Below are positions 2,321 through 57,289 of a stretch of 64,000 nucleotides of DNA, piece after piece (position 1 is the first letter of the stretch; the number at the start of each line of letters is the position of its first letter). Under the pieces are notes generated by a model. The model made no database searches. It worked only from the letters and a program-made list of their open reading frames with translations, and was not told where the DNA came from. This stretch comes from Hydrurus foetidus (lineage: Eukaryota), in assembly GCA_900617105.1 (NCBI GenBank), contig UYFQ01000001.1, positions 3,286,001 to 3,350,000 of the forward strand. The letters run 5' to 3'. Made by a program: the position numbers and the translations under genes.

Positions 2321-2375
2321 TGCTACGTTATTAATAGCTGCTCGCGCCCGTATTTATTGTCTAAAACCCTTATTT
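2321..2375 (+). repeat. Dispersed 55-bp repeat, copy 1
   Basis: tgctacgttattaatagctgctcgcgcccgtatttattgtctaaaacccttattt. Confidence 0.85.
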
Positions 2376-2376
2376 A

Positions 2377-3138
2377 ATGCTTAAAAACGGCCATTTTCTT
2401 GCGTTTGATACCTCAACCGACGTGATGTCGATTGCGCTGACTGACAAAAGCTGCGCGGGAGGCCGCGTGTGGCAGCACACCGGGCCGGGCGGCGCCAAGG
2501 CGTCGACCACGTTGATTCCCGCCATTTTGGCTTTGCTGGCTGAAGCTAATCTGGCGCTGGGCGACTTGCAGGCGATTGCGTTTGGTCGGGGGCCGGGGTC
2601 GTTTTCAGGGCTGCGCACGGCGTGTGCGGTGGCGCAGGGCTTGGCTTTTGGGGCCAATCAGGGGGCGGGCATTGCCGTGCTGCCGATTGATACGCTGCTG
2701 GCCGTGGCTGAAGAGGCGCGCTTTCTATCTGGCCCCGGCTTGCAGCGCATCACGGCCTTGCTCGACGCCCGCATGGACGAAATGTATGTACAGCGCTACA
2801 CCTTAAGTAGCGGTGAGTTGATTGCAGACGGGCGCTGCGAGTTGATTCGGCCTGAAGACTTGCCAGTCGATGCGGCGGCGCAGTTGTTTGCTGGTAATGT
2901 TTTTACGGTGTACGCTGACAAGTTGTCTTTAAGCCTGACGACGCTCACCTGTTTGCCCACCGCCACGGCTTTGTTGCGTTTGGCTCCCGCGTTGGCGGCC
3001 AGCGGGCACTGCGTGCGTGCTGAGCTGGCGCTACCGCTGTATGTTCGCGATAAAGTAGCGCTGACTACCGATGAAAGAGCAGCAGTCAGCCGTGCAAAGC
3101 AAGCGCTTGCCCAAGCCAGCGCAGTACCGGCAAATTGA
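2377..3138 (+). CDS. tsaB: tRNA t6A biosynthesis protein TsaB
   Basis: LAFDTS, GPGSFSGLR, LDARMDE, PLYVRDKVA; lies upstream of rimI. Confidence 0.93.
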   Translation: MLKNGHFLAFDTSTDVMSIALTDKSCAGGRVWQHTGPGGAKASTTLIPAILALLAEANLALGDLQAIAFGRGPGSFSGLRTACAVAQGLAFGANQGAGIAVLPIDTLLAVAEEARFLSGPGLQRITALLDARMDEMYVQRYTLSSGELIADGRCELIRPEDLPVDAAAQLFAGNVFTVYADKLSLSLTTLTCLPTATALLRLAPALAASGHCVRAELALPLYVRDKVALTTDERAAVSRAKQALAQASAVPAN

Positions 3139-3145
3139 AAGCACC

Positions 3146-3649
3146 ATGAGCGCCGTTTTTAAACCTGTTGAATCGCAAGAGGCCCAGTTTGAGCCCATGA
3201 CCGCCGCGTGGCTGCCGCCCGTGGTGGCGGTGGAGCGCAGCGCGTACACCTACCCGTGGACGCTCGGTAACTTCAGCGATTCAATCGCGGCCGGGTACCA
3301 GGCGCAGTTGCTGACTGGCGGTGCGCCGCACCCGGTGCTGCTCGGCTACTTTGTGGCCATGAAGGGCGTGGACGAAACGCATTTGCTCAACATCACGGTG
3401 GCGCCTGCGCATCAGCATTGCGGCTGGGCGCGCGTGATGCTTGACGCGCTGGCGATGTGGTCCCGGGCCGAAGGCGCGCTGTGGCTGTGGCTGGAAGTGC
3501 GCGCCAGCAACGCGCGTGCAAAATTAATCTACGAGCGCTACGGCTTTCGCGCAGTTGGCCTGCGCAGCGGCTACTACCCCGAAGGTGGCAAAGGCCTGTT
3601 GGGCGGGTCCGCGCGTGAAGACGCGATTGTCATGAGTTTTAAATTGTGA
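3146..3649 (+). CDS. rimI: Ribosomal protein S18 N-acetyltransferase
   Basis: YPWT, HLLNITV, LEVRASN, YY...EDAIVM; start moved to the ATG at 3146. Confidence 0.92.
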   Translation: MSAVFKPVESQEAQFEPMTAAWLPPVVAVERSAYTYPWTLGNFSDSIAAGYQAQLLTGGAPHPVLLGYFVAMKGVDETHLLNITVAPAHQHCGWARVMLDALAMWSRAEGALWLWLEVRASNARAKLIYERYGFRAVGLRSGYYPEGGKGLLGGSAREDAIVMSFKL

Positions 3650-3659
3650 GCAGTGCGCT

Positions 3660-4421
3660 ATGAGCCTAGCTTTAGGCAACCGGCAGTTGGCCATGCTGCG
3701 CGAAATGGGCGTGCGGGTGTGGCAACCTGCGCCCCCAAGCAAGGCGGATGCAACCGCCACCGTGCCAATTGCCACTGCACTGCGGCCTGCAATTGCTATT
3801 AATACAGGAGCTGCTAGCGCCCGAATTGAAGGCGTCACAGGCACTTTAGAGCCTAAAAAACGGCCTGCAGCGGCCGATTTGGCTCCACCGCCTTCAGCTG
3901 CGCCGCCAGACGGCACCCGTGCCGAGTCGGCTTGGCAAATCGGCGCGCTGCAATCGTTGTATCCCGCGCCAGAGGCCAGCACCGCGCCCCGCTGGCTGGT
4001 GCTGCTAGAAGCCCCCGCCAGCGCCTTGCAGGCTTCGTTCAACGCTTTTGAAGGTGATGCAGGCAAGCTATTGGGCAACATGCTCCGCGCCACGGGCATG
4101 CACACACTTGGCACGGTGCAGTTGGCGCCGCTGGTCAGGGGCAGCAGCGCGAGTCAAGCCTTGCCCGGTGCATTGCTTGAGTTGCTGGCCAGCCAGGCGC
4201 CCGATGTGCTGCTCGTGATGGGGCGGCTGGCAGCGCAGGCGGTGCTGCAGTCGGCCGAGCCGCTTGCCAAGCTGCGCGGCCAGGTTCATGCTGTGCCAGG
4301 CGAGCAACGTGCCATACCAACCATCGTGACGCTAGACCCCGCATATTTGCTGCGAAACCCGCTGGATAAAGCCAAGGCCTGGGACGACTTGTGCCTGGCG
4401 CTGAGTTTGAAGGCTGCTTGA
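3660..4421 (+). CDS. Uracil-DNA glycosylase family-4-like protein, degenerate
   Basis: AGKLLGNML, LRGQVH, PAYLLRNP.DKAKAWDDLC; Fe-S cysteines and catalytic His not seen. Confidence 0.8.
   Translation: MSLALGNRQLAMLREMGVRVWQPAPPSKADATATVPIATALRPAIAINTGAASARIEGVTGTLEPKKRPAAADLAPPPSAAPPDGTRAESAWQIGALQSLYPAPEASTAPRWLVLLEAPASALQASFNAFEGDAGKLLGNMLRATGMHTLGTVQLAPLVRGSSASQALPGALLELLASQAPDVLLVMGRLAAQAVLQSAEPLAKLRGQVHAVPGEQRAIPTIVTLDPAYLLRNPLDKAKAWDDLCLALSLKAA
3794..3848 (+). repeat. Dispersed 55-bp repeat, copy 2 (in frame in the UDG-like gene)
   Basis: tgctattaatacaggagctgctagcgcccgaattgaaggcgtcacaggcacttta, translated AINTGAASARIEGVTGT. Confidence 0.8.
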
Positions 4422-4423
4422 TT

Positions 4424-5320
4424 TCAGCTTGACGTTTTTAACTGGCGCGGGCTGCTTGAGGCCAACACCGTCACAATTGCCACCGCCATCAGCACCACGG
4501 CCGCCCAGTCTTGCCAGTGCAGCACTTCGCCTAACCACAGCGCGCCCGTAAACACACCCACGATGGGTACCATCATTGTGCTTAGGGTGGACGCAATCGG
4601 CGGCAAACTGCGTGCCAGCGTGAACCAAGCCGCGTGGGTAAAACCAAAAATCATCACGCCGTTGTAAACGATTGCGCCCCAGGTTTGCGCGGGCGGCATG
4701 CGCCATTGGTCGCGCTCAAAAATGGCCGACAACACGCTCAGCACCACCGCAGCCAGCAGCGTCATCCAAAAAGAAATGGTCAGCGTGCTGGCTGGCAGTT
4801 TCGTCATCCGCAGCCGCTGCGTGCCGACTGCCCACACCGCCGCTGCCGTCAGTGCGAGTGCCACGCCCAGCGGCTTGCCGGCTAAATTGGTCAGCTCATT
4901 AAACAAGAGCAGCGACACGCCAACAGCCGCAGCTGCCACGCCCAGCCACTGCAGCGGTTTGAGGCGCGTTCGGTAAAAAAACGCGCCCAGCACCGCCGAA
5001 AAAACCGGCATGGTGTAGCCCAAAATAGCGGCCCGCCCGCTGCTGAGCAAACTCACTGCCACAATGATCAGCGCGTGCCACACAAACATGTTGGTCACCG
5101 CCAGCCAGAACAATTCTCGCCAATCGCGCCGCGCCACAAAAAACGGCACCTTCATGGCCGCCAAAGCCAGCCCCAACACCGGCACGCCCAACCACAGGCA
5201 AATCGCGCGAAAGGTAAGTGGCGGGTAGCCGGTTACGCCCAGCTTCATCACTGGCCAGTTCACGCCCCAGGTCAGGGTGACGAGCACGATCAAGATGAGT
5301 TGTTTGCGGCTGAGGTGCAT
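4424..5320 (-). CDS. DMT/EamA family transporter
   Basis: About 10 TM segments, WGVNWPVMK, two EamA halves. Confidence 0.9.
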   Translation of the reverse strand: MHLSRKQLILIVLVTLTWGVNWPVMKLGVTGYPPLTFRAICLWLGVPVLGLALAAMKVPFFVARRDWRELFWLAVTNMFVWHALIIVAVSLLSSGRAAILGYTMPVFSAVLGAFFYRTRLKPLQWLGVAAAAVGVSLLLFNELTNLAGKPLGVALALTAAAVWAVGTQRLRMTKLPASTLTISFWMTLLAAVVLSVLSAIFERDQWRMPPAQTWGAIVYNGVMIFGFTHAAWFTLARSLPPIASTLSTMMVPIVGVFTGALWLGEVLHWQDWAAVVLMAVAIVTVLASSSPRQLKTSS

Positions 5321-5378
5321 TCGTTGTGAAGATCTGAATAGGCAGGGCCTTGATTGTGTAGCTTCTTACAATCGCAGC

Positions 5379-6221
5379 ATGAGCACTTCCCCGACCTTTC
5401 TCGACATGCTGCGCGCCACCGAGCATCAAAATCAATCCCTGCTTTGTGTGGGCCTGGACCCCGAGCCCGCGCGCTTTCCGGCCAAGCTTAAAGGCGACGC
5501 CAGCAAAATTTATGATTTTTGCGCCGCCGTGGTCGACGCAACGGCTGACCTGGTGATTGCTTTCAAGCCGCAAATTGCCTACTTTGCCGCACACCGCGCT
5601 GAGCAGCAGCTTGAGCAGCTCATGGCCCACATGCGCCGCGCTGCGCCGCATGTGCCGATTATTCTGGACGCCAAGCGCGGCGACATTGGCAGCACGGCTG
5701 AGCAGTACGCGATTGAAGCATTTGAGCGCTATGGCGCAGACGCAGTCACGCTGTCACCGTTTATGGGATTTGACTCGGTCGCCCCTTATTTAAAATACCA
5801 CGGCAAAGGCGCTTTTTTGCTCTGCCGCACGTCTAACCCCGGCGGCGATGACTTGCAAAACCAGCGGCTCAGCTCGGTTAAAGGTGAACCCTTGTTGTAT
5901 GAGCATGTAGCCGCACTGGCCCAAGGCCTATGGAACTTAAATGGCCAGCTTGGGCTGGTAGTGGGGGCAACTTACCCGTTTGAAATTGAGCGCGTACGGC
6001 GCGTAGCGCCCACGTTGCCGCTGTTGATACCCGGCATTGGCGCGCAAGGCGGCGACGCAGCAGCGGCGGTGCGGGCGGGTTATCGGTCAGGCGCGCCAAT
6101 TATTGTCAACTCATCGCGGGCCATTTTGTATGCGGCGGCGGGTGACGATTTTGCTGCCGCGGCTCGAGCCGAGGCCTTGAAAGCTCGGGATGTGCTGCAA
6201 AAAGCTAAAAACATCGCGTAA
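5379..6221 (+). CDS. pyrF: Orotidine-5'-phosphate decarboxylase
   Basis: LCVGLDP, DAKRGDIGST, PGIGAQGG, NSSR; start moved to 5379. Confidence 0.96.
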   Translation: MSTSPTFLDMLRATEHQNQSLLCVGLDPEPARFPAKLKGDASKIYDFCAAVVDATADLVIAFKPQIAYFAAHRAEQQLEQLMAHMRRAAPHVPIILDAKRGDIGSTAEQYAIEAFERYGADAVTLSPFMGFDSVAPYLKYHGKGAFLLCRTSNPGGDDLQNQRLSSVKGEPLLYEHVAALAQGLWNLNGQLGLVVGATYPFEIERVRRVAPTLPLLIPGIGAQGGDAAAAVRAGYRSGAPIIVNSSRAILYAAAGDDFAAAARAEALKARDVLQKAKNIA

Positions 6222-6306
6222 CACTTTTTCGGGCATAACGTCCTGTTAAAGCCGTGACTACATAACGGCGAGCCATTAACCTACAGGTCTTGATGACTTC
6301 TGGTTA

Positions 6307-8292
6307 ATGCCCATGCTGGATATTTTAGAAACGCAAGCTTCGGTTTGCGATCAGAGCACTGCTGTACCCCTTGCTTCTTTACCCATTGCAACCGCGCGCA
6401 ACCCGGGCGGCGACCCAAGTAACCCGTTGTCGGCCGATGCATCAAGCTTGAAGCTCAGCTCAGTTGCCGCGTTGTCTGCCGCCCTGCTGGCAGCCTGCGG
6501 TGGTGGCGGGGGCGGGGGCGGTGCTGGCACCAGCCCAGTGGGTGGTGGGGTGGCCACTGCGCCTTCCGCGGCGACGGAAGACATCAATACCAACATTGGC
6601 CCTGCGCCCACGGTCAAGGTGCCGCCAGCGGCAGGTTTTAACAACTTCGCCAAAGCGGACACTGATGAGCAGGCCGCGCGCTTTTTGCTGCAAAGCCAGC
6701 TCAGTGCGTCTGACCAAGACATCAGCAACCTCAAAGCCGGTAACTTTGCCGGCTACCTGCAGCAGCAGTTTGCGCGTCCCGCCAGCCAAAGCGGCTGGGA
6801 CTGGCTGGAAAGCCGGGGCTACGGCGTATCAGACGCGAATCGCTACTTTTTTACCACTTACCCGGCCGAATACATGCTGTGGAAGCAACTGTTCACCTCG
6901 CCAGACGGCATGCGTAAACGCGTGGCGCTGGCGTTGTCTGAGTTTTTTGTGTCGTCCATGCAGTCGGCAGAATTTACCTGGCGCAGCCATTCGTATGCGC
7001 AGTACTGGGACATATTGGTGGGCAACGCGTTTGGCACTTATCGGCAGTTGCTCGAAGAAGTCACGCTCAGCACCGCCATGGGTTACTTTTTAAACACGCA
7101 GGGCAACCAGAAAGAAGACACCAAGAGCGGCCGCGTACCCGATGAAAATTACGCTCGTGAAGTCATGCAGCTGTTTTCTATTGGTACGGCGCAACTGAAC
7201 CTGAACGGCACCGAAAAAACCGTCGGCGGCAAAAAAGTTGACTCGTACACGCAAGCCGATGTGACCAACCTCGCCCGCGTTTTCACCGGATACCAGTTCG
7301 ACAATTCCGATGGCGAAAGGCTACCGGTTTACAGAGAAGACGGCAGCACCGAGAACTACACCGTTGACGGCCGCCAGTCCGTGCGCAAACGCATGGCGCT
7401 AAATGAAGGCCGACATTCGACTTTAAGCGCCACCTTTTTAGGCGTGACGATTGCAGCCAACACGCCGGGCGCCTTGGCGCTGAAGACTGCGCTCGACACG
7501 CTGGCCAACAACGAAAACACCGGGCCATTTTTTGCCAAGCAAATGATTCAGCGCCTGGTCACCAGCAACCCCAGCCCCGACTACGTTGAGCGTGTGGCGC
7601 GCGCCTTCAACAATAACGGCGCAGGGGTTCGCGGCGACTTAAAAGCCGTTTGGGTGGCGATTTTGCTCGACGACGAGGCGCGCGGCACGACGTCTCTGGC
7701 CAGCCCCACGTTTGGCAAACTGCGTGAACCTATGGTGCGGTTCATTCAATGGGGCCGCACGTTTGGCTTGGCTTCTGGTTTTAATTCGTGGAAGGTCAGC
7801 GCTACCCGGGGCACCGACGACTCGCTGGGGCAAAGCCCGCTGTTTGCACCGTCGGTGTTCAATTTCTTCAGGCCCGGATTTGTGCCGCCCAACACCGCGT
7901 TAGCCACCGCCCAAGCGCCTGCGCCGGAGTTTCAGTTGGTCAATGAGACCACCGTGGGCGGTTATTTGAACTACATGCAAAACGTGATTCGCGGCGGCAT
8001 TTACGTGCCCAACCCGGACGTAGCGGCAGGCACGTTCAAAAATTATCTGCCTGATGTGAAAGCCACTTATGCTGCCGAGCTGCCGCTGGCAACCGACGCG
8101 GCGGCGCTGGTCAAACGCTTAAAGCTGCTGCTGTGTGCAGGCCAACTTTCTGCTGCTACTGAAAAAATCATGGTCGATGCACTCAATGCCAAGCCCGTCA
8201 CAGCCAGCAGCAGCGCCGACGAAAAACTCAATCGCATTGGCGCGGCTGTATTGATGGTGATGGGCTGCAGCGAATATTTAATTCAAAAATAA
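6307..8292 (+). CDS. DUF1800 family protein (possible lipoprotein)
   Basis: PDENYAREVMQLFSIG, LVTSNPS, GKLREP, SVFNFF motifs; LLAACGGG lipobox-like segment; start uncertain. Confidence 0.88.
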   Translation: MPMLDILETQASVCDQSTAVPLASLPIATARNPGGDPSNPLSADASSLKLSSVAALSAALLAACGGGGGGGGAGTSPVGGGVATAPSAATEDINTNIGPAPTVKVPPAAGFNNFAKADTDEQAARFLLQSQLSASDQDISNLKAGNFAGYLQQQFARPASQSGWDWLESRGYGVSDANRYFFTTYPAEYMLWKQLFTSPDGMRKRVALALSEFFVSSMQSAEFTWRSHSYAQYWDILVGNAFGTYRQLLEEVTLSTAMGYFLNTQGNQKEDTKSGRVPDENYAREVMQLFSIGTAQLNLNGTEKTVGGKKVDSYTQADVTNLARVFTGYQFDNSDGERLPVYREDGSTENYTVDGRQSVRKRMALNEGRHSTLSATFLGVTIAANTPGALALKTALDTLANNENTGPFFAKQMIQRLVTSNPSPDYVERVARAFNNNGAGVRGDLKAVWVAILLDDEARGTTSLASPTFGKLREPMVRFIQWGRTFGLASGFNSWKVSATRGTDDSLGQSPLFAPSVFNFFRPGFVPPNTALATAQAPAPEFQLVNETTVGGYLNYMQNVIRGGIYVPNPDVAAGTFKNYLPDVKATYAAELPLATDAAALVKRLKLLLCAGQLSAATEKIMVDALNAKPVTASSSADEKLNRIGAAVLMVMGCSEYLIQK

Positions 8293-8352
8293 CCCGCCGC
8301 CTCAACGTAGTTCAATTTCTGGCCTCCCAGTTAACCAAAAAAGATATCCAGC

Positions 8353-9837: not shown

Positions 9838-9897
9838 CAGCAAGGCTCTCAGGCCTTGATCAGCGTCGCGCTGCAGCTTGAGCGTTGAGCTCAAATC

Positions 9898-9952
9898 TGC
9901 TACTGTATCAGTAGCTGCTAGCGCACGTATTTATTGGGCTGAAGCCGTATTC
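9898..9952 (+). repeat. Dispersed 55-bp repeat, copy 3 (overlaps the alkB-like stop)
   Basis: tgctactgtatcagtagctgctagcgcacgtatttattgggctgaagccgtattc. Confidence 0.9.
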
Positions 9953-10998
9953 ATGTCGTTTTCTGACGTTACGGACAACTTTGCAAGCCGTGCGTGCATC
10001 ACGGCAAACCACACTGGCGGAATCATCGCCAACAGCAAGCAACCCGCATAGCCGGTGGGCAATTGCGGCCCAGGCAGTGGCTCCAAAGTAGCGTAGGGCT
10101 TCCATGCGTGCATGTGGTGGTCTGAGTGGCGCTGCAAGTTGGCCAGCATCGAATTGGTGGCCACGTGGTCGGCGTTCCAGGCGTGCATCATGCCAAAGGC
10201 TTCGCGCTTGCCGTTGGTGGTGTTGCGCTGCAAACCGTAGTGCTCGATGTAGTTAACGATTTCTAGCAGCAAAAATCCTACAACTGATTGAAGTACAAAA
10301 AACGCTATTACTTTAGGAGCTGCTTGCGCCGGTAAAAATAGGGCTGCAGCTACTATTGCCGTTATTGATACGGCTGTGCTCCACGCCAGAGGGCTGCGCA
10401 GCCAGCTGCTTTTCATTTGCTTGATGCGCCGCGTCTCAAGCTGCCAGCCGCTTTTCAGACTGCCCCACAACGTGCGCGGCAAAAAGCGATACAAACTCTC
10501 CCCAAAGCGAGAGGTTGCCGCATCGTTGTGCGTGGCAGCGCGCGGGTGGTGGCCGCGATAATGCTCCACCATGAAGTGGCCGTAGCACACGCTGGTCATC
10601 AACACCCAGCCGCACAAGCGGTCGATTTTTGATTTGCTGTGGCCCAGATCATGCGCAAAGGTAATGCCCTGCGAGCCAGTGATAAACCCCACGCTGAACG
10701 CCATGCCCAGCACAGTTACCCAATCGGCCTGCATGGCGGCATAAGCGCCTGCGCCAATCAGTGCCAGCTGCAGCAACACATACAGCCGCAGTACGGCGCT
10801 GAAATACGTCATGCGCGTGTTCGCGTCAATCGCAGCCGGCGAGCGCTTACCGCCCGGCATCATCACGTCTACCAGCGCAATGCCCCACCAGATGGCGAGC
10901 GTCCACAACGCTGCCTGCGTAGGCAAGAACGTCACGCTATAAATACTTAACGCTGGCAGTAGCCAAGCTACTAGAAATCGGAGGTCTGATATGCGCAT
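9931..10998 (-). CDS. alkB: Alkane 1-monooxygenase-like membrane di-iron hydroxylase
   Basis: His boxes HDLGH, EHYRGHH, NYIEHYG, LQRHSDHH; PQLPTGY. Confidence 0.85.
   Translation of the reverse strand: MRISDLRFLVAWLLPALSIYSVTFLPTQAALWTLAIWWGIALVDVMMPGGKRSPAAIDANTRMTYFSAVLRLYVLLQLALIGAGAYAAMQADWVTVLGMAFSVGFITGSQGITFAHDLGHSKSKIDRLCGWVLMTSVCYGHFMVEHYRGHHPRAATHNDAATSRFGESLYRFLPRTLWGSLKSGWQLETRRIKQMKSSWLRSPLAWSTAVSITAIVAAALFLPAQAAPKVIAFFVLQSVVGFLLLEIVNYIEHYGLQRNTTNGKREAFGMMHAWNADHVATNSMLANLQRHSDHHMHAWKPYATLEPLPGPQLPTGYAGCLLLAMIPPVWFAVMHARLAKLSVTSENDMNTASAQ
10303..10357 (+). repeat. Dispersed 55-bp repeat, copy 4 (in frame, antisense, in the alkB-like gene)
   Basis: cgctattactttaggagctgcttgcgccggtaaaaatagggctgcagctactatt; the gene reads AAALFLPAQAAPKVIA. 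Confidence 0.78.
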
Positions 10999-11093
10999 AG
11001 CGTCAAGATCCCATAAAGTGTCAGCGTCTGCAAGGGCAGATAGCCCTAAAACCCCGGCTCTTGCCAGGGGGTTATGAAGCTCTCTTTGACGCC

Positions 11094-12326: not shown

Positions 12327-12369
12327 GTTGAATTCCCATAATATTTTGAGAATTACAGTGTCAGGTTTG

Positions 12370-12391
12370 TTTGTGACAGATTTTTGAAAGA
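12370..12391 (-). promoter_or_regulatory. Putative Pho box
   Basis: Minus strand gtcttcaaaaa-tctgtcacaaa: two 11-bp units with TCA in phase, upstream of the phosphodiesterase. Confidence 0.5.
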
Positions 12392-12436
12392 CTGCCGGTC
12401 GCTCAAAAACCTGATTTATACCGCCCGCCGCCGCCC

Positions 12437-13366: not shown

Positions 13367-13372
13367 GCAAAT

Positions 13373-13822: not shown

Positions 13823-13841
13823 ATTTTTCTCCTGGGAGTTT

Positions 13842-13896
13842 TGCTATTTAAAAAATAGCTGCTAGCGCCAATAATCATTGGGCTACAGCTTTTTTT
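13842..13896 (+). repeat. Dispersed 55-bp repeat, copy 5
   Basis: tgctatttaaaaaatagctgctagcgccaataatcattgggctacagcttttttt. Confidence 0.9.
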
Positions 13897-13993
13897 AACG
13901 AGGCAGACAACAACAGCGCCAAATACTGTCCGGTACGGCTATCAGAGTTGGCGGCAATATCTTCCGGAGTTCCCACACCCATCGCCATGCCGC
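13875..13993 (-). pseudogene. Displaced duplicate of the uvrA 3' end
   Basis: [29 protein letters not shown] versus Uvr[30 protein letters not shown]; 68/89 nt identical to 15303-15391 (hand count). Confidence 0.88.
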
Positions 13994-14080
13994 AGCTTAC
14001 TGTAAGTCGGTTAGTTAAGGTAACCCGAAAATTTCCAAAAACTTCCAATCCATCAAATGACATGGCAGCGGGTAATCCGA

Positions 14081-14308: not shown

Positions 14309-14321
14309 AAAATCATGGTAA

Positions 14322-14352
14322 ATTCCGATTCGGAATATCCCATTTTGGAATA
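14322..14352. promoter_or_regulatory. Tandem palindromic operators between the XRE gene and the lipoprotein gene
   Basis: attccga-t-tcggaat immediately followed by tatccca-ttt-tggaata. Confidence 0.5.
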
Positions 14353-18421: not shown

Positions 18422-18913
18422 ATGGCATCGATCAACAAAGTCATCATCGTCGGCAACCTGGGCAAAGACCCCGAGATGCGCAGCTTTCCTAACGGCGACC
18501 AGATCGCCAACGTGTCGATTGCCACTACCGACCGCTGGAAAGACAAAACCAGCGGCGAAATGAAAGAGGCCACCGAGTGGCACCGCATCAACTTCAATGG
18601 CCGCCTGGCTGAAATTGTGGGCCAGTACCTGAAAAAAGGCTCGCAGGTGTACGTGGAAGGCAGCCTGCGCACCCGCAAGTGGACCGACAAAGACGGCGTC
18701 GAAAAATTCACCACCGAAATTCGCGCCGATCAAATGCAGATGCTGGGTAGCCGCCAAGGCATGGGCGGTGGCTCGCCAGACGGTGACGATGGCGGCAGCA
18801 GCAACTACAGCGCCCCGCGCGCGGCCCCGGCTGCTCGACCTGCAGCGGCCAAACCCGCGGCCGCCAAGGCTGCCAGTGGGTTTGACGATATGGATGACGA
18901 CATTCCGTTTTAA
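18422..18913 (+). CDS. ssb: Single-stranded DNA-binding protein
   Basis: [16 protein letters not shown]-terminal DDDIPF. Confidence 0.98.
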
Positions 18914-18958
18914 AGCCTTGAAAGCGAGGCAAGCCTGGTTTGCCTCGCTTAGAGCCTT

Positions 18959-18985
18959 AAAAAACCCGCTGCTGGCGGGTTTTTT
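18959..18985 (+). terminator. Intrinsic terminator, probably bidirectional
   Basis: aaaaaacccgc-tgctg-gcgggtttttt; a second hairpin lies at 18922-18950. Confidence 0.85.
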
Positions 18986-19016
18986 GTTGCCTGTTGATGG
19001 CGGTGAAGCAAATAAA

Positions 19017-19071
19017 TACTATAAATTTAGTAGCTGCTCGCGCCCGTATTAATTGGGCTAAAGCACAATTT
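19017..19071 (+). repeat. Dispersed 55-bp repeat, copy 6
   Basis: tactataaatttagtagctgctcgcgcccgtattaattgggctaaagcacaattt. Confidence 0.92.
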
Positions 19072-19096
19072 AGACCTTAAAAACAGCCTCGAAACA

Positions 19097-20266
19097 CTAT
19101 TGGGGCGTGTTTTGCACGTTGCTACTGTCAATCACGCCGCCGCCCAGGCACACCTCGCCGTCGTAGAGCACGGCTGATTGGCCCGGCGTCACGGCCCACT
19201 GGGCGCTAGAAAAGTGCAGATCGCAGGTGCCAAGTGTGGCGCTTTGCAGGGCGCACTCCGCATCCGCTTGGCGGTAGCGGGTTTTGGCCGCCAGCTCGCC
19301 CAGCGCAGGCGCGGCGCAAGCCACCCAGCTGCAGTCTAGCGCGCTGACCTCGGTTGACTGCAGCCAAGGATGGTCGTGGCCTTGCACTACCCACAGCGTG
19401 TTGGTCGCCATGTCTTTGCGGGCAACAAACCAAGGCGGGTGCTCGCCCGCGCCGCGCTGGCCTTGGGCTTGCAAGGCTTTCAGCTCGGCGCCTTTGGCTT
19501 TTACGCCGCCAATCCCTAAACCTTGGCGCTGGCCGAGCGTGTAAAAGCTCAAGCCTACGTGTTCGCCGAGCGTGCGGCCTTTGTCGCTTTTGATCGGGCC
19601 GGGCGCCTTAGCGATGTAGCGGTTTAGAAAGTCTCTGAACGGCCGCTCGCCAATGAAGCAAATGCCGGTGGAGTCTTTCTTTTTGGCGTTCGGCAGGCCG
19701 ATTTCGTCAGCGATACGGCGCACGTCGGTTTTTTTCAGCTCGCCCACCGGAAACAACGTTTTTGACAACTGCGCCTGGTTGAGGCGGTGCAAAAAATAGC
19801 TTTGGTCTTTGGCCGGGTCGAGGCCTTTTAGCAGTTCATGTAGCTGCGTGGCTTCGTTCAGCCGAACGCGGGCGTAGTGCCCGGTGGCAATCTTTTCTGC
19901 ACCCAGGCGCATGGCGTGGTCTAAAAACGCTTTGAACTTGATTTCGGCGTTGCACAAAATATCCGGGTTGGGCGTGCGGCCGGCTTCGTATTCACGCAAA
20001 AACTCGGCGAATACGCGGTCTTTGTAGTCTGCCGCAAAGTTGACGTGTTCAATTTCAATGCCCAGCACATCGGCTACGGCGGCGGCGTCGATGAAGTCAA
20101 CGTTTGATGAGCAGAACTCGTCTGAGTCATCGCCCTCCCAGTTTTTCATGAAGATGCCGATGACTTCATGGCCTTGCTGTTTGAGCAAATAGGCGGTGAC
20201 GGAGGAGTCAACGCCACCGCTCAGGCCGACTACTATGCGTTGTTTTGGTGTGGATTTCTGTCCCAT
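19097..20266 (-). CDS. mnmA: tRNA 2-thiouridylase
   Basis: [36 protein letters not shown]. Confidence 0.98.
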
Positions 20267-20290
20267 GTGGTGATTATCGTATTTAATGCA

Positions 20291-20345
20291 GTTTTTGGAT
20301 ATTGCTCAATAGATACGGGTATTAGTAGCTCTTTAATTTGTAGCG
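20291..20345 (-). repeat. Dispersed 55-bp repeat, copy 7
   Basis: Reverse complement: cgctacaaattaaagagctactaatacccgtatctattgagcaatatccaaaaac. Confidence 0.75.
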
Positions 20346-20347
20346 GA

Positions 20348-20411
20348 TCGCCTTCATTGAGAGTGCCGGGGGTAGCCGCCGGGCTACCCCCGGCAAACCA
20401 CGTGAAGGCGA
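20348..20411. repeat. GC-rich nested hairpin between repeat copies 7 and 8
   Basis: Perfect 14-bp stem tgccgggggtagcc/ggctacccccggca with a 4-nt loop, inside an outer 9-bp stem tcgccttca/tgaaggcga. Confidence 0.85.
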
Positions 20412-20414
20412 ACG

Positions 20415-20469
20415 TGCTACAAAATCAAGAGCTGTTAGCGCCCGAATTTAGAACGCCAAAGCCAAATTC
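20415..20469 (+). repeat. Dispersed 55-bp repeat, copy 8
   Basis: tgctacaaaatcaagagctgttagcgcccgaatttagaacgccaaagccaaattc. Confidence 0.78.
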
Positions 20470-20974
20470 AACCAGAAAAAACAGAAACATCAGTAGTAAC
20501 CAAATCCAAAGGAAACCGCTGCCCACGCAAATAATCCTCAAGACAAGTCAACAGCAACGGACTTCGATGCATTCCAGTGCACCCCCGAATCTCGTCTGCC
20601 GTCAACCAAACCGCCCGAACAATCCCCACATCCAGCGCCTGGCCTTTAACGTGCGCACCCAACTCGCCGCAAAACGCAAACCGCAGGTAGGTGATGTCCT
20701 CTTGCTTGCCAGGCTCGTCAGGGTGGGCGCGCTGAAAGCGGGACATGTACACACCCACCAGCGCCGTGGGCTTGAAGTGGTACGCGGTCTCTTCCAGTGT
20801 TTCTCGGGCACAACCGTTAGCCAGGCTCTCGCCGGGGTCGAGGTGGCCGGCTGGGTTGTTGAGCCTTAGCCCATCACGGGTATCTTCTTCAACCAGCAGA
20901 AATTTTTGAACGCCACTGAAGTCTTTTGCAATCACGGCGGCTACCGTTACGCTGGGTTTGAAGTGTCTGATCAT
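20468..20974 (-). CDS. nudJ: NUDIX hydrolase (NudJ-like)
   Basis: KPSVTVAAV, PAGHLDPGES...ARETLEET, RSPLL; lies upstream of mnmA. Confidence 0.85.
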   Translation of the reverse strand: MIRHFKPSVTVAAVIAKDFSGVQKFLLVEEDTRDGLRLNNPAGHLDPGESLANGCARETLEETAYHFKPTALVGVYMSRFQRAHPDEPGKQEDITYLRFAFCGELGAHVKGQALDVGIVRAVWLTADEIRGCTGMHRSPLLLTCLEDYLRGQRFPLDLVTTDVSVFSG

Positions 20975-21015
20975 AGAACTCGGTTAGTTGTCTGGAAAGA
21001 GCCATTTTTAGTGTA

Positions 21016-21070
21016 AATAAATGCTATTGCCCAATATTTACGGGTGTAAGCAGCTACTAAATTTATAGCA
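21016..21070 (-). repeat. Dispersed 55-bp repeat, copy 9
   Basis: Reverse complement: tgctataaatttagtagctgcttacacccgtaaatattgggcaatagcatttatt. Confidence 0.9.
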
Positions 21071-21243
21071 TTTTATATTTAATCGCGGCGCATTATCACA
21101 TCAAAATTTGGCTTTGCCAGTATTGTTGAACTTGGGCCGTTGTCCAGCCCGTGGGGCGCATAACCTCTAAAATTGGGGTTTTACACGAAACCTGCTGCTG
21201 CTTAGCGGCTCGGCGCCACCGCGCTTACCCCACAAGGATTTTC

Positions 21244-23109: not shown

Positions 23110-23164
23110 TGATGTACAGATAAGAGCTGATTGCGCCTGTATTAATTGGTCTACAGCCTGTTTT
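23110..23164 (+). repeat. Dispersed 55-bp repeat, copy 10
   Basis: tgatgtacagataagagctgattgcgcctgtattaattggtctacagcctgtttt. Confidence 0.78.
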
Positions 23165-23168
23165 GCAC

Positions 23169-25066: not shown

Positions 25067-25121
25067 CGCTATAGCTACAGTAGCTGTTTGCACCCGTATT
25101 CATTGGGCTACAGCCCTAAAT
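25067..25121 (+). repeat. Dispersed 55-bp repeat, copy 11
   Basis: cgctatagctacagtagctgtttgcacccgtattcattgggctacagccctaaat. Confidence 0.88.
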
Positions 25122-30912: not shown

Positions 30913-31665
30913 ATGAAAAATACAGCGGCCCCTATTGCCATTTTGAGCGCGCTGCTTGAAGAACAGCGGGGCCTGATCGATCAGCTGCGCAACCCAAAAA
31001 AAGTTACCCACGCCAACCGCGATTTTTGGCTGGGCGAATGGCATGGCCACGCTGTTGTGCTGGCGTTGTCAAAAATTGGAAAAGTGGCCGCAGCCACCAC
31101 GGCTACTACGCTGATAGAGCGCTTCGGGGCCAATCGAATCGTGTTTACCGGCGTTGCGGGTGGGCTGGCGCCCGGCGTGAAGGTGGGCGACGTAGTGGTG
31201 GGGCAAAGCTTTATGCAGCACGACATGGACGCTTCGCCGCTGTTTGCGCGCTTCGAGGTGCCGCTGCACGGCAAAACCCGATTTGATGGCGACGCAGCTT
31301 TAACAGCTGCGTTGTTCAAGGCGAGCCAGGGTGCACTCGCCAATGCGCTTGTGCGGGGCGCGTATGAAGCGGCCAGCGTGCAGCTGGGCTTGATTGCCAG
31401 TGGCGACCGCTTTGTGTCTAGCGCTGCTGAATCGCAACGTTTACGCGCCGCTCTGCTCCAAGCCGGACACGACGTGCTGGCAGTAGAAATGGAGGGCGCA
31501 GCCGTGGCGCAGGTGTGCCACGACTACGGCGTGCCGTTTGCGGCAGTACGCACCATCTCAGACCGGGCAGACGACAACGCGCACGTTGATTTCCCGAGCT
31601 TTATCGACCAGGTGGCCAGCAAATATGCATTGGCTATCATTGATGGGCTTTTTAAGACACTATAA
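30913..31665 (+). CDS. mtnN: MTA/SAH nucleosidase
   Basis: IGKVAAA, FTGVAGG, SGDRFV, EMEGAA, RTISD. Confidence 0.95.
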   Translation: MKNTAAPIAILSALLEEQRGLIDQLRNPKKVTHANRDFWLGEWHGHAVVLALSKIGKVAAATTATTLIERFGANRIVFTGVAGGLAPGVKVGDVVVGQSFMQHDMDASPLFARFEVPLHGKTRFDGDAALTAALFKASQGALANALVRGAYEAASVQLGLIASGDRFVSSAAESQRLRAALLQAGHDVLAVEMEGAAVAQVCHDYGVPFAAVRTISDRADDNAHVDFPSFIDQVASKYALAIIDGLFKTL

Positions 31666-31712
31666 AAATAGGAGCTGCTCGCTCCCGTATCTATTGGGCT
31701 AAAGCACTATTT
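31658..31712 (+). repeat. Dispersed 55-bp repeat, copy 12 (supplies the mtnN stop)
   Basis: cactataaaaataggagctgctcgctcccgtatctattgggctaaagcactattt. Confidence 0.88.
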
Positions 31713-35087: not shown

Positions 35088-35142
35088 AGCTATAAAGTAT
35101 ATAGCTGCTTGCGCCCGATTTTATTGGGCTACAGGCCGAATT
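35088..35142 (+). repeat. Dispersed 55-bp repeat, copy 13
   Basis: agctataaagtatatagctgcttgcgcccgattttattgggctacaggccgaatt. Confidence 0.92.
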
Positions 35143-38627: not shown

Positions 38628-38682
38628 TGCTATTTATTAAGTAGCTGCTCGAACCCGTATTAATTGGGCTGCAGCTCGATTT
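38628..38682 (+). repeat. Dispersed 55-bp repeat, copy 14
   Basis: tgctatttattaagtagctgctcgaacccgtattaattgggctgcagctcgattt. Confidence 0.9.
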
Positions 38683-50467: not shown

Positions 50468-50565
50468 GCGCGCGTAACAATCACTTCGCGGCAGCTGGGG
50501 TCGTGTGTTGACGGGTTTGGTCGTTAGCAGGCCGGAAATGCGGTTTTAGGCCTGTTTTCGATGTA

Positions 50566-50620
50566 CTTTTGGCGTGTAGCCCAATAACTACGGGCGCGCG
50601 CAGCCCATTAATTCATAGCA
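50566..50620 (-). repeat. Dispersed 55-bp repeat, copy 18
   Basis: Reverse complement: tgctatgaattaatgggctgcgcgcgcccgtagttattgggctacacgccaaaag. Confidence 0.85.
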
Positions 50621-50775
50621 AAAATGATTGGCTCAAGGTAGTTGCTGCACTGCAACACAAACGCAATTAGTTGTACGCCAGCCGTGGGTGGTACTTGAAA
50701 GCGCTGCGGCTCGGTGCAAAATGAGCTTCCCCAAGTAACCCATTCCCGCCGCGCCACATTGGGCGGGACGTTTCT

Positions 50776-52644: not shown

Positions 52645-52701
52645 TAGCGGTGGGCGAGCGATTGAGTTGACCCGGTCATCTGCGCCCAGGCGGTCAGCCA
52701 G

Positions 52702-55338
52702 TCAGGCCGTCATGCCCATGTCTTCAGCAGCAAGCTTTGATGCCGCTGACTGGGCGGCTATGGGTTTGTTGTTGCCGGTGACAGCGTCTAGCGCTTGCGC
52801 CACCACACCGCTGGTGTCGACCAACCTCAGCAAGTTTTGCATCATCAACTTTTCGCAGCTGCGGCTGGTCATGGAATGGGGCTGGCCGCCGTGGCTTAAA
52901 AACATGAACAGTGTGGACTTGGTGCTGGCCCAAATCAGTTGCGCACGCAACCAGCGGCGCTTGGAATACAAGTCAACCCAATTGCCAGCGCGCAAGCCCT
53001 GCAGCATGGCCAGTGCCTGCTCTTTGGTGAAGGCTTGTGTTGCCTCAGCTTGCAATTGAACTTCGGGCGGGGTGTCTGGCGCTGCTGAGTTAAGGACTGG
53101 AACTGTTTCAGCAAAACCTTCGGGCGGTGTTTCGGCTGCCGAGTCAGCACCGGCGGGGTTCAGTGCATCGGCAATTTCCAGCGGCGATGGAAAGGTGGGT
53201 TGCGTATCTTCAAAGCCAGCGGCGTCTTGATCGTTGCGGCCCAGCCACAGCGACTGAGCTTCAGCGCGAATTTTCTCCAACCGCTCCAGCGGCGAGCTGC
53301 CGGAGTCTTGCGCATCGGGGCCGTCGGTTAACTCAAGAGCGACAGCAGAATCATCTAGCGAGCCCAGGTTGGACTCTTCAGCATCGCGCTGCGTTTTAAG
53401 TCGCCTGAGTTTGAGCACGGGTTTGTGTAGCGTCATTAACGCCTGAAAAAATGTGTCGCTTTCTTCAGGCGTTTGGCCCAGCAGTTTCAAGCCGGAGCGC
53501 AGCTTGTCGAGCATGCTGGGCACCATGGCAACAAATTTGGCGGGCTGCTTGAGTGTGGCTTCGTGTTTGACGCTCCAGATCAGGTCGGGCACTACCGAGC
53601 CATAACCTTCTGGGTCGACCTGGTTGCGCTTATCCACCAGCCGGGCGTGCGCCATCACCAGCGCCCATGGGCCAAACAAAAAGTCCAAGACCAGGCCCGA
53701 CACTTTTTGCAAATCAGACCGGGCACTCAAGTCGAACGCAATTTCGTCGGCCTTGGCTTGGCGTTCTTCGGCAAAGCGCAGCGCCTGCAGCACCGCTTGG
53801 CGCTTGTCGGTTTCTTGCCGGTCTTGCTGGTTCCAGGCGGACTCTAAAGTGTGCAGCGCCAGCGCGAACGGCTGGGTGTTTTTAACTTCGCTGTCGTTCA
53901 GCGTGTTGAAGATGGCGTTAAGCCCCGCTGGGCCGCTAAAAAACGCCACAAACTCGTCGCTGTATTCGTCGTTGTATTTAAAACTGCGCTGGGCCACGCG
54001 CTCCATTAATTGGCGGCCTACATGGCGCTCGTCGCTGAAAAAGCGCGGGTCGACCAGGGCCAGGCGCAGCAGTGACGGCTCCAGCGCAACAATGGCTTCG
54101 CGCACGGGCGCCAGCAAGCGTGGGTTCAGCGCCACCTGGTTGACCAGCTGCCGCACCACTTCCAGGCCCATGACCTGACCCACTTGGGTGGCCTCTTTTT
54201 TGAGCTGAGTGCGCACCATGGTGCGGCGCCGAGCGTGGCCATAGTTGCCCCACGCGCCGGTGCTCAGGTGGCTGGCGGCATTAACGGTGCGCTGCGGCCG
54301 GTCGACCGATGGCAGGTGCTGGTAATTGCTTGGCGGTGGGCGCTGTTCAGTCTCGTCGTCCAGTTGCTCATTAAGCGCCTGAAGCTCTTCGTCAACCTGC
54401 TCGTAATAAGCTGGCGACAGGCGCTGGCCAGAGTTGTTGCCGCCGCGGAACAAAAAATCGTCAAAAAAGTCTTCTCGAGCGCCTTGAACAGACAGGTCTG
54501 CGTACACCGACGGCTGTTGCCCGCCGCCCTGTTGGTCCCAACCACCGCCGTCGCCAGCGAACACGTTGCCGCCGTTGGCGTCGTTACCACGCCATTCACC
54601 GCCACCGGCGTTGCCGTTGCCTTGCGGCGTTTGCACCACACGGTACTGCGCCGCTTGTACGTTGGCCGACTCCAGCTGCGCCACAGCTTTCGCGTAAATG
54701 GTTTTCAGCCCCAGCCCTAAAGGCGGCGCGATGTGTTTGGCCCACAGCGCGGGAAGCGCTGCATCGCCATCGGGGGCTGTCATCAAGTTGTGCAGCACCC
54801 GCGTGAATTCTTGTGGCCTAAGCGGGTTGTGTTCGGGCCTGACATTGGGCAGTCCCAGCGCGGTGCTGATCAGCGCGTCAAGCTCGGCCAGTTTTTGTTC
54901 AAGGTCGGGCAGAATTTGCTGCAGCAGGCGCTGCGAATCGATGGCTTGCACCACCTCTGCGTCATCAACCAATGTCAAACTGTCGAGACTCAAACCACCC
55001 ATGCCGGAGCCAGCATAGCGAGACTCAGCGGCTGGAACATTTAATGTCAGGTCGGCAGCGTCCGGCACAAGACTCGTCCCTGCTAGAGGGGTCGCCGCCA
55101 CGCTCGCCGTAAAAGCGGTCAACATGTCAGCGGTGTAGCGCACCTTCCAGCTGTCTTTTCGACTGGCTAATTGACGCCAGGCATTGGCCAGCTGGTCCCG
55201 CTCGGCCACTTTCATGCTTTTGAGCGCTAGCTGCTGCAGCGTTTCCACCGCGGCATCGACGCACTTGGCCAGCAACGGCCCGCACGCTTGCGCGGTGTCT
55301 TTCAGGCAGTGTTGTAGTACGTCAGATTGCTGAGTCAT
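52702..55338 (-). CDS. DUF1631-like large helical protein
   Basis: NPLRP, LEPSLLRLAL.DP.FF, C-terminal W..AQL.W...LFMF; start moved to the ATG at 55338. Confidence 0.75.
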   Translation of the reverse strand: MTQQSDVLQHCLKDTAQACGPLLAKCVDAAVETLQQLALKSMKVAERDQLANAWRQLASRKDSWKVRYTADMLTAFTASVAATPLAGTSLVPDAADLTLNVPAAESRYAGSGMGGLSLDSLTLVDDAEVVQAIDSQRLLQQILPDLEQKLAELDALISTALGLPNVRPEHNPLRPQEFTRVLHNLMTAPDGDAALPALWAKHIAPPLGLGLKTIYAKAVAQLESANVQAAQYRVVQTPQGNGNAGGGEWRGNDANGGNVFAGDGGGWDQQGGGQQPSVYADLSVQGAREDFFDDFLFRGGNNSGQRLSPAYYEQVDEELQALNEQLDDETEQRPPPSNYQHLPSVDRPQRTVNAASHLSTGAWGNYGHARRRTMVRTQLKKEATQVGQVMGLEVVRQLVNQVALNPRLLAPVREAIVALEPSLLRLALVDPRFFSDERHVGRQLMERVAQRSFKYNDEYSDEFVAFFSGPAGLNAIFNTLNDSEVKNTQPFALALHTLESAWNQQDRQETDKRQAVLQALRFAEERQAKADEIAFDLSARSDLQKVSGLVLDFLFGPWALVMAHARLVDKRNQVDPEGYGSVVPDLIWSVKHEATLKQPAKFVAMVPSMLDKLRSGLKLLGQTPEESDTFFQALMTLHKPVLKLRRLKTQRDAEESNLGSLDDSAVALELTDGPDAQDSGSSPLERLEKIRAEAQSLWLGRNDQDAAGFEDTQPTFPSPLEIADALNPAGADSAAETPPEGFAETVPVLNSAAPDTPPEVQLQAEATQAFTKEQALAMLQGLRAGNWVDLYSKRRWLRAQLIWASTKSTLFMFLSHGGQPHSMTSRSCEKLMMQNLLRLVDTSGVVAQALDAVTGNNKPIAAQSAASKLAAEDMGMTA

Positions 55339-55583
55339 CAGAGATTGGTCAGGCGAGGTTTCTAAGCTAAAACGGCTGTGGCAGTCTGTTGAAGAGACGA
55401 ATCCGAAGTGTAAGCGGCAGTTAAATAATAGCGGCTGGCGCAAGGGTTATGTTGATGCCAGTTTATTTTGCTTACAAATAGTCAATTTCAGTGAATAAGG
55501 TCACTGACTTGCGACGTGCAAGCCGCCGCAAGCGGACCGTATTAGATCCGATGTTAGAGCGAAAAACCCCTATTTAACGAACA

Positions 55584-55638
55584 AAATAAGCCTGTAGTCC
55601 AATAAATAAGCGCGCAAGCAGCTATAAAAATTATAGTA
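55584..55638 (-). repeat. Dispersed 55-bp repeat, copy 19
   Basis: Reverse complement: tactataatttttatagctgcttgcgcgcttatttattggactacaggcttattt. Confidence 0.88.
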
Positions 55639-55674
55639 AAAAGGCTTGCGGCGAGGCTTGAGTTTTTGGCCACT

Positions 55675-57201
55675 TCAAGTCTGCACTGCTTGCCGAACGG
55701 CGTGTTCCCATTGCCACATCAAATCTGCTGCGCGGCCGGGGGTGAGGGTGGGGTAAAAAGTTCTTTCCGCCCGCCACAAGCCCGATAGCTCGGCGGTGCT
55801 GCCATACACGCCGCTTGAAAGCCCTGCCAGGTACGCCGCACCCAGCGCCGTGGTTTCGGTGATCAAAGGCCGGACTACCGGTATACCCAGTAAATCTGCC
55901 TGGAACTGCATCAGCAAGTCGTTGACGCAGGCGCCGCCGTCTACCCGCAGCTCAGCCACCGGGGTTGCGCCCGCGCTGATGGCGTCGCGGCTCATGGCCT
56001 GCAGCAACGCAGCGCTTTGGTAGGCAATGCTTTCAAGTGCGGCGCGCGCAATGTGCGCCATCGTGGTGCCGCGGGTCAGCCCGGTAATCGTGCCCCGGGC
56101 GTCGGGCTGCCAGTAGGGCGCGCCCAAGCCGGTAAAAGCCGGCACCATCATCACGCCGCCAGAATCAGGCACGCTTTCGGCAAGCGCCTGCACCTCAGTG
56201 CTGCTCTGAATGGCGTTTAAACCGTCACGCAGCCATTGCACCACTGCGCCGCCCACAAACACGCTGCCTTCAATTGCAAACTCTGGCTGCGCAGTGGTTT
56301 GCGCGGCGCTTGTGGTCAACAGGCCGTTGGTTGAGGTTTGAAACTGGCTGCCCGTGTGCATGAGGGTGAAGCAGCCCGTGCCGTAAGTGTTTTTGGCCAT
56401 GCCGGCTGTAAAGCAAGCCTGCCCAAACAGTGCGCTTTGCTGGTCGCCCGCAACGCCGCCTATCGGTATGGCGTGGCCTAGCAGCTCAGGCCGCACCACC
56501 CCAAAATGTGCGCTGGACGGCAACACGCGGGGCATCAGCGACGGCGCAATAGCTAGCAGCGCCAACAGCTCGGCGTCCCATTGGTTGGTGTGCACGTTAA
56601 ACAGCATGGTGCGGGACGCGTTGCTGACGTCGGTGCTGTGAACGGCTTGGCTGCGCGTGCTGGCCGCGCTGCCGCCGGTTAGCTGCCACATCAGCCAGCA
56701 ATCAACCGTGCCAAAGGCCAGTTCGCCGTTTTCAGCGTGTTTGCGCGCACCCGCCACGTTGTCTAGCAGCCACTTCAGTTTGGTGCCTGAAAAATACGCA
56801 TCAACCAGCAGGCCGGTTTTGGCTTGAATCAGCGGTGCTTTGCCTTGCGCGCGCAACGCTGCGCAGGTGTTTTCGGCGCGGCGGTCTTGCCAAACAATGG
56901 CGTGGGCAATAGGCGCGCCCGTGGTGCGGTTCCACACCACCGTGGTTTCGCGCTGGTTGGTGATGCCCAGCGCCCGAATGTGCTCAGGCTTGATGCCTTG
57001 AACTGCGGCTTTGGCAAGCGCTTGCCGCGCGGTGGCGAGTTGACTGTGCCAAATTTGCATCGGGTCATGCTCAACCCAGCCGGGCCGGGGGTAGATCTGC
57101 GGCAGCTCTTGCTGGGCCTGAGCCGCGATTCGCCCCGCTGCATCGAACACAATGCTGCGCGAGCTGGAAGTGCCTTGGTCAAGTGCAAGTAGATAGGTCA
57201 T
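55675..57201 (-). CDS. glpK: Glycerol kinase
   Basis: [32 protein letters not shown]. Confidence 0.97.
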
Positions 57202-57234
57202 GGCGGCTCTGAGCGATGAGTTGGAGGGCTAATT

Positions 57235-57289
57235 TGCTATTGATATAAGAGCTGATTACGCCTGTAAATATTGGGCTACAGCACGATTT
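57235..57289 (+). repeat. Dispersed 55-bp repeat, copy 20
   Basis: tgctattgatataagagctgattacgcctgtaaatattgggctacagcacgattt. Confidence 0.87.

Follow-up and report, generated by a model that had tools for sequence, protein, structure and literature searches.

The stretch of DNA analyzed here (the window) comprises 64,000 nucleotides of contig UYFQ01000001.1 (positions 3,286,001 to 3,350,000, forward strand) from GenBank assembly GCA_900617105.1, deposited as Hydrurus foetidus. It is part of the core chromosome of a Polaromonas-like bacterium, the best ProA relatives being 85–89% identical and titled Polaromonas, and it carries 20 dispersed copies of a 55-bp motif. This motif is a real family-level signal of Comamonadaceae and is undescribed as far as we searched; no description of it was found in the full-text literature covered, a scope that leaves out figures, supplements, and most subscription papers. 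Realignment confirmed the 20 gap-free copies of the initial annotation, each at the coordinates assigned there, together with both of the weak internal dyads it had noted. As it had also reported, no two copies are identical, with a mean pairwise identity of 65% and a range of 38–85%. The copies score 25–78 bits against a leave-one-out position weight matrix (PWM), whereas 20 block-shuffled windows never exceed 4.6 bits; a PWM scan of the window found no 21st copy above 0 bits.

Five of the 20 copies, a quarter that the initial annotation did not remark on, lie entirely within Pfam-supported genes, and all five share one alanine-coding phase. Two run in the sense direction, one within a UDG-superfamily gene (3794..3848, +, phase 2), this motif copy being present in the nearest genome, G001, as well, and one within leuS (44146..44200, +, phase 2), where the motif occupies a length-variable loop and has orthologous copies in other genera. 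The other three are antisense. One lies within a fatty-acid desaturase gene (10303..10357, +, residues 214–232, phase 2), and two are within proA, at residues 28–46 (46464..46518, −), spelled by synonymous codons with no indel, and at residues 305–323 (47295..47349, −), in a longer loop. Gene ends are overlapped by four further copies. The copy at 9898..9952 (+) overlaps the 3′ end of a desaturase gene and is present, in diverged form, in G001; those at 23110..23164 (+) and 31658..31712 (+) overlap the stop codons of a 107-amino-acid open reading frame (ORF) and of a nucleoside phosphorylase-family gene, respectively; and that at 20415..20469 (+) touches the stop codon of a NUDIX gene. A copy at 25067..25121 (+) lies 2 bp past the stop codon of a LysR-type regulator gene.

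Of the intergenic copies, those between dacB and tsaB (2321..2375, +, ending 2 bp before the start of the tsaB ORF), between GATase and corA (35088..35142, +), and between glpK and deoR (57235..57289, +) are identical in G001. Convergent genes flank two more, ssb and mnmA around the copy nearest to the consensus (19017..19071, +) and hprK and fur around another (38628..38682, +). The remaining spacers with copies are NUDIX/aldehyde dehydrogenase (21016..21070, −), gshA/kup (50566..50620, −), DUF1631/glpK (55584..55638, −), and one at 13842..13896 (+) for which there is no G001 coverage. The copy at 20291..20345 (−) forms the left arm, and that at 20415..20469 the right arm, of a 180-bp imperfect inverted repeat (20291–20469), in which the divergent copies and a 69-bp spacer surround a perfect GC-rich hairpin (20365..20394). 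The hairpin lies outside the motif, has GTAG at its base, and is identical in G001, which shows the same layout.

The consensus of 68 copies from the window and G001 comprises a dyad, GCTAT-N7-ATAGC, TGCTnGCGCCCG, an AT-rich 7-mer, TGGGCTAnAG, and further AT tracts. These tracts lie near positions −1, 10, 32, 54, 65, 76, and 85, and the motif has no sharp ends, its signal fading outward. A second, degenerate dyad is located 23–24 bp from the first. G313, the genome of locus L018 (titled Polaromonas), supplied 160 copies over 800 kb; in these, the AT tracts recur with a period of ∼10.1 bp, about one helical turn, and the motif holds 56 bits of information compared with the 13 needed for site location. 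At ten W (A or T) positions in 99 intergenic G313 copies, the non-consensus letters are 273 A↔T swaps, 41 transitions, and 17 other transversions. This excess of swaps, which decaying master copies would not give, points to selection for tracts with a narrow minor groove that a protein would read.

Abundance and genomic context of the motif

The initial annotation had projected on the order of a thousand copies genome-wide, an estimate that is roughly right and on the high side, given ∼560–760 copies in the 2.7 Mb of G001. A pattern for the left half of the motif has 493 matches in this genome and none in the control; as it finds 13 of the 20 window copies, ∼760 copies are expected. A 231.6 kb sample of G001 contains 48 copies, or 1 per 4.8 kb, corresponding to ∼560 genome-wide. 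Across the family, a strict pattern reaches at least 50 matches in ∼50 of 301 genomes, a count made by eye with a pattern that misses other dialects. Matches to a general dyad pattern have a bimodal distribution among 50 genomes taken from the 80 behind our named loci, with 85–690 matches per strand in 41 and 0–25, near control, in nine. This split into motif-rich and motif-poor genomes is repeated in a further 80 family genomes, also inside genera. In other families of the class, there are at most five matches per genome (249 genomes, 200 families); the motif is abundant in part of Comamonadaceae and at background in the 200 other families sampled. In an Acidovorax-centered group (that of the L048 genome), 58 of 67 genomes have more than six matches of the dialect of the Acidovorax genome.

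Two genomes stand out for their repeats. In the low-count genome G601 (contigs C2, C13, and C24), most dyad matches come from two sequences that recur unchanged many times, possibly a relic of the motif carried by a multicopy element. G609 carries a different, unrelated repeat (L317–L324) in near-identical copies, 8–9 per 160 kb, more like an ordinary mobile repeat.

The motif is scarce in foreign DNA. Five named Polaromonas/Rhodoferax plasmids are at background (10 matches versus 16 in the control, in 1.5 Mb), plasmid pVEIS01 has one match versus 1.68 expected, and a blastn search of one copy against plasmids returned two irrelevant matches only. In IMG/VR, the strict pattern occurs in 75 stretches, nearly all of them single in their contig. 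Over window positions 1–61000, identity to G001 is mosaic (74–100% per kb), suggesting that divergent relatives are frequent partners in homologous recombination. Such mosaicism is expected where recombination is frequent, and we count it in favor of the DNA uptake reading set out below. It would also fit a different transfer route, in which the motif would mark DNA preferred for packaging or entry by a gene-transfer agent, a transducing phage, or a conjugative system that moves chromosomal DNA, and biased transfer with recombination would likewise give accumulation in place and dialects. However, the viral stretches and the plasmids offer little trace of such traffic, and no such system turned up, in searches not aimed at one; we consider this route very improbable.

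Chromosome sites linked to replication, of the KOPS, matS, or Chi type, are expected to be biased in orientation or position relative to the origin and terminus. In two single-contig genomes, there is no leading/lagging bias (47/42 in G008 and 33/24 in G128) and no significant origin-to-terminus gradient (uniformity p 0.50 and 0.11, respectively, with the terminus taken opposite dnaA), a result that does not support a replication-linked site. The earlier proposal of a selected protein-binding or chromosome-organizing site is supported as regards a maintained, protein-read site but not as regards a replication-linked organizer. Copies in G313 are unclumped (variance 1.93 and mean 2.0 per 10 kb, about Poisson), and their density increases with codon typicality (rho 0.38, 80 bins).

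Gene context in G313, taken from a simple purpose-made gene caller, places 42 of 158 classified copies inside called genes, 33 of these 42 in two mirror frames. Intragenic copies occur in both orientations. Convergent spacers are enriched (34/106 versus 64/401), and copies in tandem spacers favor the antisense orientation (38 versus 17). This arrangement of intergenic copies, and the two small hairpins that can form, would suit a motif that acts as an RNA or single-stranded DNA structure, such as a terminator or a stability or processing signal. Against this, z is above −1.8 in nine of ten folds, and 10 of the 12 position pairs tested in G313 copies have no more Watson-Crick combinations than expected; together, the unremarkable folds and the lack of Watson-Crick excess indicate that the signal is read as double-stranded DNA. 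In addition, the second dyad is shifted or lost in some dialects, the two orientations inside genes sit poorly with a transcript signal, and Rfam gave no match across the whole window, positions 18900–21200 having only weak matches off the motif. We therefore regard a structural role as extremely improbable.

Origin of sites, dialects, and the search for a mobilizer

All 15 window copies that can be aligned to G001 are present there, with no empty site among them. At proA residues 28–46, none of the 79 orthologs that cover the site (80 aligned) has an indel, and the synonymous codons are skewed to the motif (p < 0.05) in 37 of 38 motif-rich genomes versus two of nine motif-poor genomes, with three intermediate genomes left out, statistics that are overstated by the kinship of the 50 genomes and by their having been picked from the 80 partly by local motif matches. 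Control sites gave such a skew in 2 of 292 cases. Orthologous motif positions are conserved across genera. A loop of ComEC (L118–L123, L129, L136, and L137) has an orthologous copy in 9 of 11 motif-rich genomes and in none of nine low or poor ones, and the long ComEC loop of G341 and G346 may be a decayed motif remnant.

The spelling of positions 22–45 is specific to the genome. With eight dialects to choose from, 159 of 196 copies are assigned to the genome they come from, and nine of 12 orthologous copies best match the dialect of the genome in which they lie. For AT-rich G171, only high-scoring copies were used (its iterative profile diverged, control 160). Copies inside a genome have almost no subfamily structure, and there is no proximity effect beyond one marginal bin. 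Nearest-neighbor identity is 0.773 versus a null of 0.769 (p 0.005), the best pair does not exceed the null (p 0.25), and a single close pair of copies was found in ∼360 kb of seven genomes (G171 excluded). Genome-specific dialects at orthologous sites, combined with the near absence of subfamilies, argue that old sites are continually retuned to a genome-wide preference.

These observations bear on the view of the initial annotation that the motif is a maintained protein-binding site rather than a recently spreading miniature inverted-repeat transposable element (MITE). Both halves of that view hold up: the codon skew in place, the dialects, the A↔T swaps, and the shared sites speak for maintenance, and the swaps, the fading ends, the lack of empty sites, and the lack of near-identical young copies speak against recent spread. 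A spreading MITE was rejected as a candidate, since terminal inverted repeats, sharp ends, empty sites, and young near-identical copies were not found, in an analysis that left ISfinder unsearched.

The mobilizer candidate considered was a Y1/HUH gene, which is found in 75 of 80 genomes, motif-rich or poor alike, and is single-copy in 58 of 62. It is flanked by its own GGGGTCAGA-type (GGGG[AT][CG]A[CG]-type) terminal repeats, which are unrelated to the motif, and GGGGTCAGA is near none of the 68 motif copies. In the available text of PMC6006769, the description of the terminal inverted repeat-associated tyrosine transposases (TIRYT, TnpA-Y1 subclass 2.1) matches these terminal repeats. Its own repeats and a presence independent of the motif led us to reject this gene as the mobilizer. 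Repetitive extragenic palindromes and their paired, mobile form (REP/REPIN) with a REP-associated tyrosine transposase (RAYT) were also rejected, as there is no Y1 gene that is flanked by the motif and co-occurs with it, no covariation to indicate a conserved hairpin behind a GTAG/GTGG foot, and no clustering into BIMEs or REPINs.

The TIRYT gene itself (L228:1473–2186 in G001; L229–L247) has intact terminal repeats, conserved downstream sequence, and variable upstream neighbors, and from these comparisons the family-wide gene looks domesticated. In several motif-rich genomes (L229, L230, L238, L243, and L246), a motif copy lies ∼65 bp past the stop codon and extends into the right terminal repeat, which takes the place of the outer arm of the first dyad. 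The Y-x-x-x-NP catalytic motif of Y1 is changed in two motif-poor genomes, G350 and G096. We read both the Y1-adjacent copies and these catalytic changes as probably incidental, a link to the motif being conceivable.

An older mobile origin was also considered. In such a scenario, an ancient small mobile element seeded spacers and tolerant loops, and short-patch gene conversion or selection later homogenized the copies and converted look-alike codons. Loop sites longer by 3 to ∼25 codons, the conservation of orthologous positions across genera, the small excess in nearest-neighbor identity, and the one 180-bp inverted pair in the window are what such an element might leave behind. It would not, however, readily account for 15 of 15 copies held in common with G001 and no empty sites, for motif ends that fade rather than stop, for A↔T swaps that outnumber transitions, or for the lack of a proximity effect and a best pair within the null. 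The only conserved Y1 transposase, moreover, has unrelated ends and is carried by 75 of 80 genomes whether rich or poor in the motif. We judge an ancient element to be improbable.

A candidate uptake signal and a chromosomal alternative

The origin of sites in place, the frame preference, the occurrence in both orientations, the scarcity in foreign DNA, the AT tracts, and the dialects lead us to favor a DNA uptake signal, which the initial annotation had not considered. The motif may represent a third, long family of candidate DNA uptake sequences kept by biased transformation (molecular drive), a reading to which we assign a probability of roughly 0.45. In this model, a type IV pilus or competence protein would read the motif in double-stranded DNA, uptake and recombination would favor fragments with a better match, leading sites to build up wherever genes tolerate the motif. 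Readout by this protein would probably proceed through bases and minor-groove shape over 55–90 bp. A change of dialect would follow a change in the reader, and the motif would decay in lineages after loss of the preference. Judged from sequence comparison, the motif behaves like an uptake sequence on all clear comparative tests except core architecture and loop length gains.

Competence genes are widespread in these genomes. Matches to comEC are found in 80 of 80 (79 above the cutoff), comM is present in 62 of 65 and interrupted in a subset of both rich and poor genomes, and ComP_DUS-like pilins and ComEA are present in five of five rich and poor genomes. In G128, G336, G627, G291, G349, and G622, which include motif-rich and motif-poor genomes, comM occurs as two fragments far apart, a pattern that integrated elements would produce. 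The available part of PMC4212676 reports type IV pilus-dependent uptake in Verminephrobacter eiseniae that resists a 1500-fold excess of salmon DNA competitor. Of four Acidovorax species, two (A. temperans and A. facilis) could be transformed according to this part, which names no uptake sequence.

Several observations weigh against an uptake signal. The genes comEC and comM, the ComP_DUS-like pilins, and ComEA do not track the motif, being found in rich and poor genomes alike, and no cognate receptor emerged from comparison of ComP_DUS-family pilins and ComEA in five genomes, the pilin loci compared being too variable for assignment. The motif contains a 17-bp dyad within 55–90 bp and has no short non-palindromic core, and a dyad motif of this length is better suited to a cytoplasmic dimer. 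Nine of the 67 genomes in the L048 Acidovorax group have six or fewer matches of its dialect; five of these nine have 34–105 general-pattern matches versus 18–42 in the control, corresponding to few, degenerate copies. The uptake reading would be weaker if the transformable species fall among such nearly bare genomes.

Loops have also gained length, which is the chief finding that point mutation alone would leave unexplained. The proA loop at residues 305–323 is ∼3 residues longer than the short form and ∼14 longer in Rhodoferax-type orthologs; LeuS with the motif is longer by six or more residues; desaturase alleles with the motif are 4–5 residues longer than six motif-free homologs; and ComEC is ∼25 residues longer in G318. 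The choice of genomes for the codon test and the antisense preference in tandem spacers, both noted above, count on the same side. Evenness of spacing, a trait of the uptake signal sequences of Pasteurellaceae, is not robust, the deficit of gaps below 1 kb having p values of 0.03–0.3 depending on the null and being significant under the first null only and not under stricter ones. Finally, between the window and G001, conserved positions of ten copies are not significantly less divergent than their flanks (0.071 versus ∼0.115, p 0.13).

Some of these points would be met by a reader of another kind. The motif could be the site of an abundant cytoplasmic dimer of dimers, either LysR-like or some other nucleoid protein, which would bend or wrap 60–90 bp and organize, mark, or protect the chromosome, weak purifying selection keeping the sites and retuning them as the protein evolves. 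The GCTAT-N7-ATAGC dyad has the T-N11-A arrangement, presumably like that of LysR boxes, and is accompanied by the second degenerate dyad and the phased A/T tracts; the dialects, the codon skew in place, and the scarcity on plasmids fit such a protein equally well, and competence genes that do not track the motif present it with no difficulty. On the other hand, replichore and origin-to-terminus bias are absent, the motif has been lost from many close relatives, and no candidate protein was found. The 56 bits of the motif, where 13 would suffice, are also far above the usual need of a single site-finding protein. On balance, a chromosomal protein seems unlikely to us, although it is the strongest of the alternatives, and a DNA uptake signal remains our preferred reading.

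It is then possible, at somewhat less than an even chance, that Comamonadaceae carry a third independently evolved sequence-specific uptake system, with a candidate 55–90 bp, helically phased, double-dyad signal in genus-level dialects, which would have altered hundreds of core proteins in their codons and loops and would hinder gene flow among betaproteobacteria of fresh water and soil. If so, a third and far longer uptake signal, in an abundant environmental family, would provide an independent test of molecular drive. It would be a candidate explanation of the sequence specificity described in the available part of PMC4212676, would predict which species exchange genes, and would offer a simple aid to transforming non-pathogenic strains. 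Should a chromosomal protein turn out to be the reader, the genome would carry several hundred 56-bit sites with precedence over codon choice in essential genes, a type of genome-wide mark that would itself be new. Either reading would account for the recurrent alanine-rich peptides in motif-bearing proteomes.

One further feature of the window is separate from the motif. A 166-amino-acid ORF between proA and gshA (47804–48304, −) has a weak PD-(D/E)XK match, does not align to G001, and has thin coverage in metagenome assemblies.

Comparison with known repeats and uptake sequences

The Rickettsia RPE, palindromic repeats that code for protein, occur as in-frame copies inside essential genes, as does this motif. 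In contrast to the RPE, nothing has been inserted at proA residues 28–46; at other sites, genes have gained varying lengths, in most cases less than a full motif. REP/REPIN elements with RAYT, and TIRYT as far as described in the accessible part of PMC6006769, resemble it as short dispersed repeats with weak dyads that are frequent in convergent spacers, in a host family that carries a single-copy Y1 gene. Unlike REP/REPIN, the present motif is unclustered and has neither a conserved hairpin nor near-identical copies.

Two repeats are known from relatives of the host. BRE, from Bordetella and other Betaproteobacteria, are likewise dispersed in Comamonadaceae and sometimes lie within genes. The available description in PMC3110155 gives them a length of 75–91 bp, 69% GC, and at most 29 copies per genome, often in tandem, and we set them apart from our motif by this description of length, GC content, and copy number rather than by sequence. 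VeiPR1, an abundant palindromic repeat in another member of the family, is known here by description only; the portion of PMC3975124 available, citing a thesis, states that it is unique to Verminephrobacter eiseniae.

Sequence-specific DNA uptake has been characterized in two families, according to the available parts of PMC7811141 and PMC3630211, with the uptake signal sequences (USS) of Pasteurellaceae and the DNA uptake sequences (DUS) of Neisseriaceae. The known USS and DUS have non-palindromic cores of 9–10 bp in the text available from PMC2817400, and our motif differs from them in being unrelated in sequence, in spanning 55–90 bp with 56 bits, in its density of 0.2–0.35 per kb compared with 0.8–0.9 per kb, and in that some of its copies add codons. 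In other respects, the traits of USS and DUS in these parts of PMC2817400, PMC7811141, and PMC3630211 match those of the motif. Both are present in hundreds to a thousand dispersed copies in both orientations, with fewer copies within genes, intragenic copies in preferred frames, and sites that originate in place. Both are also scarce in foreign DNA and form lineage dialects around a conserved core, which, as in the USS, is flanked by AT tracts.

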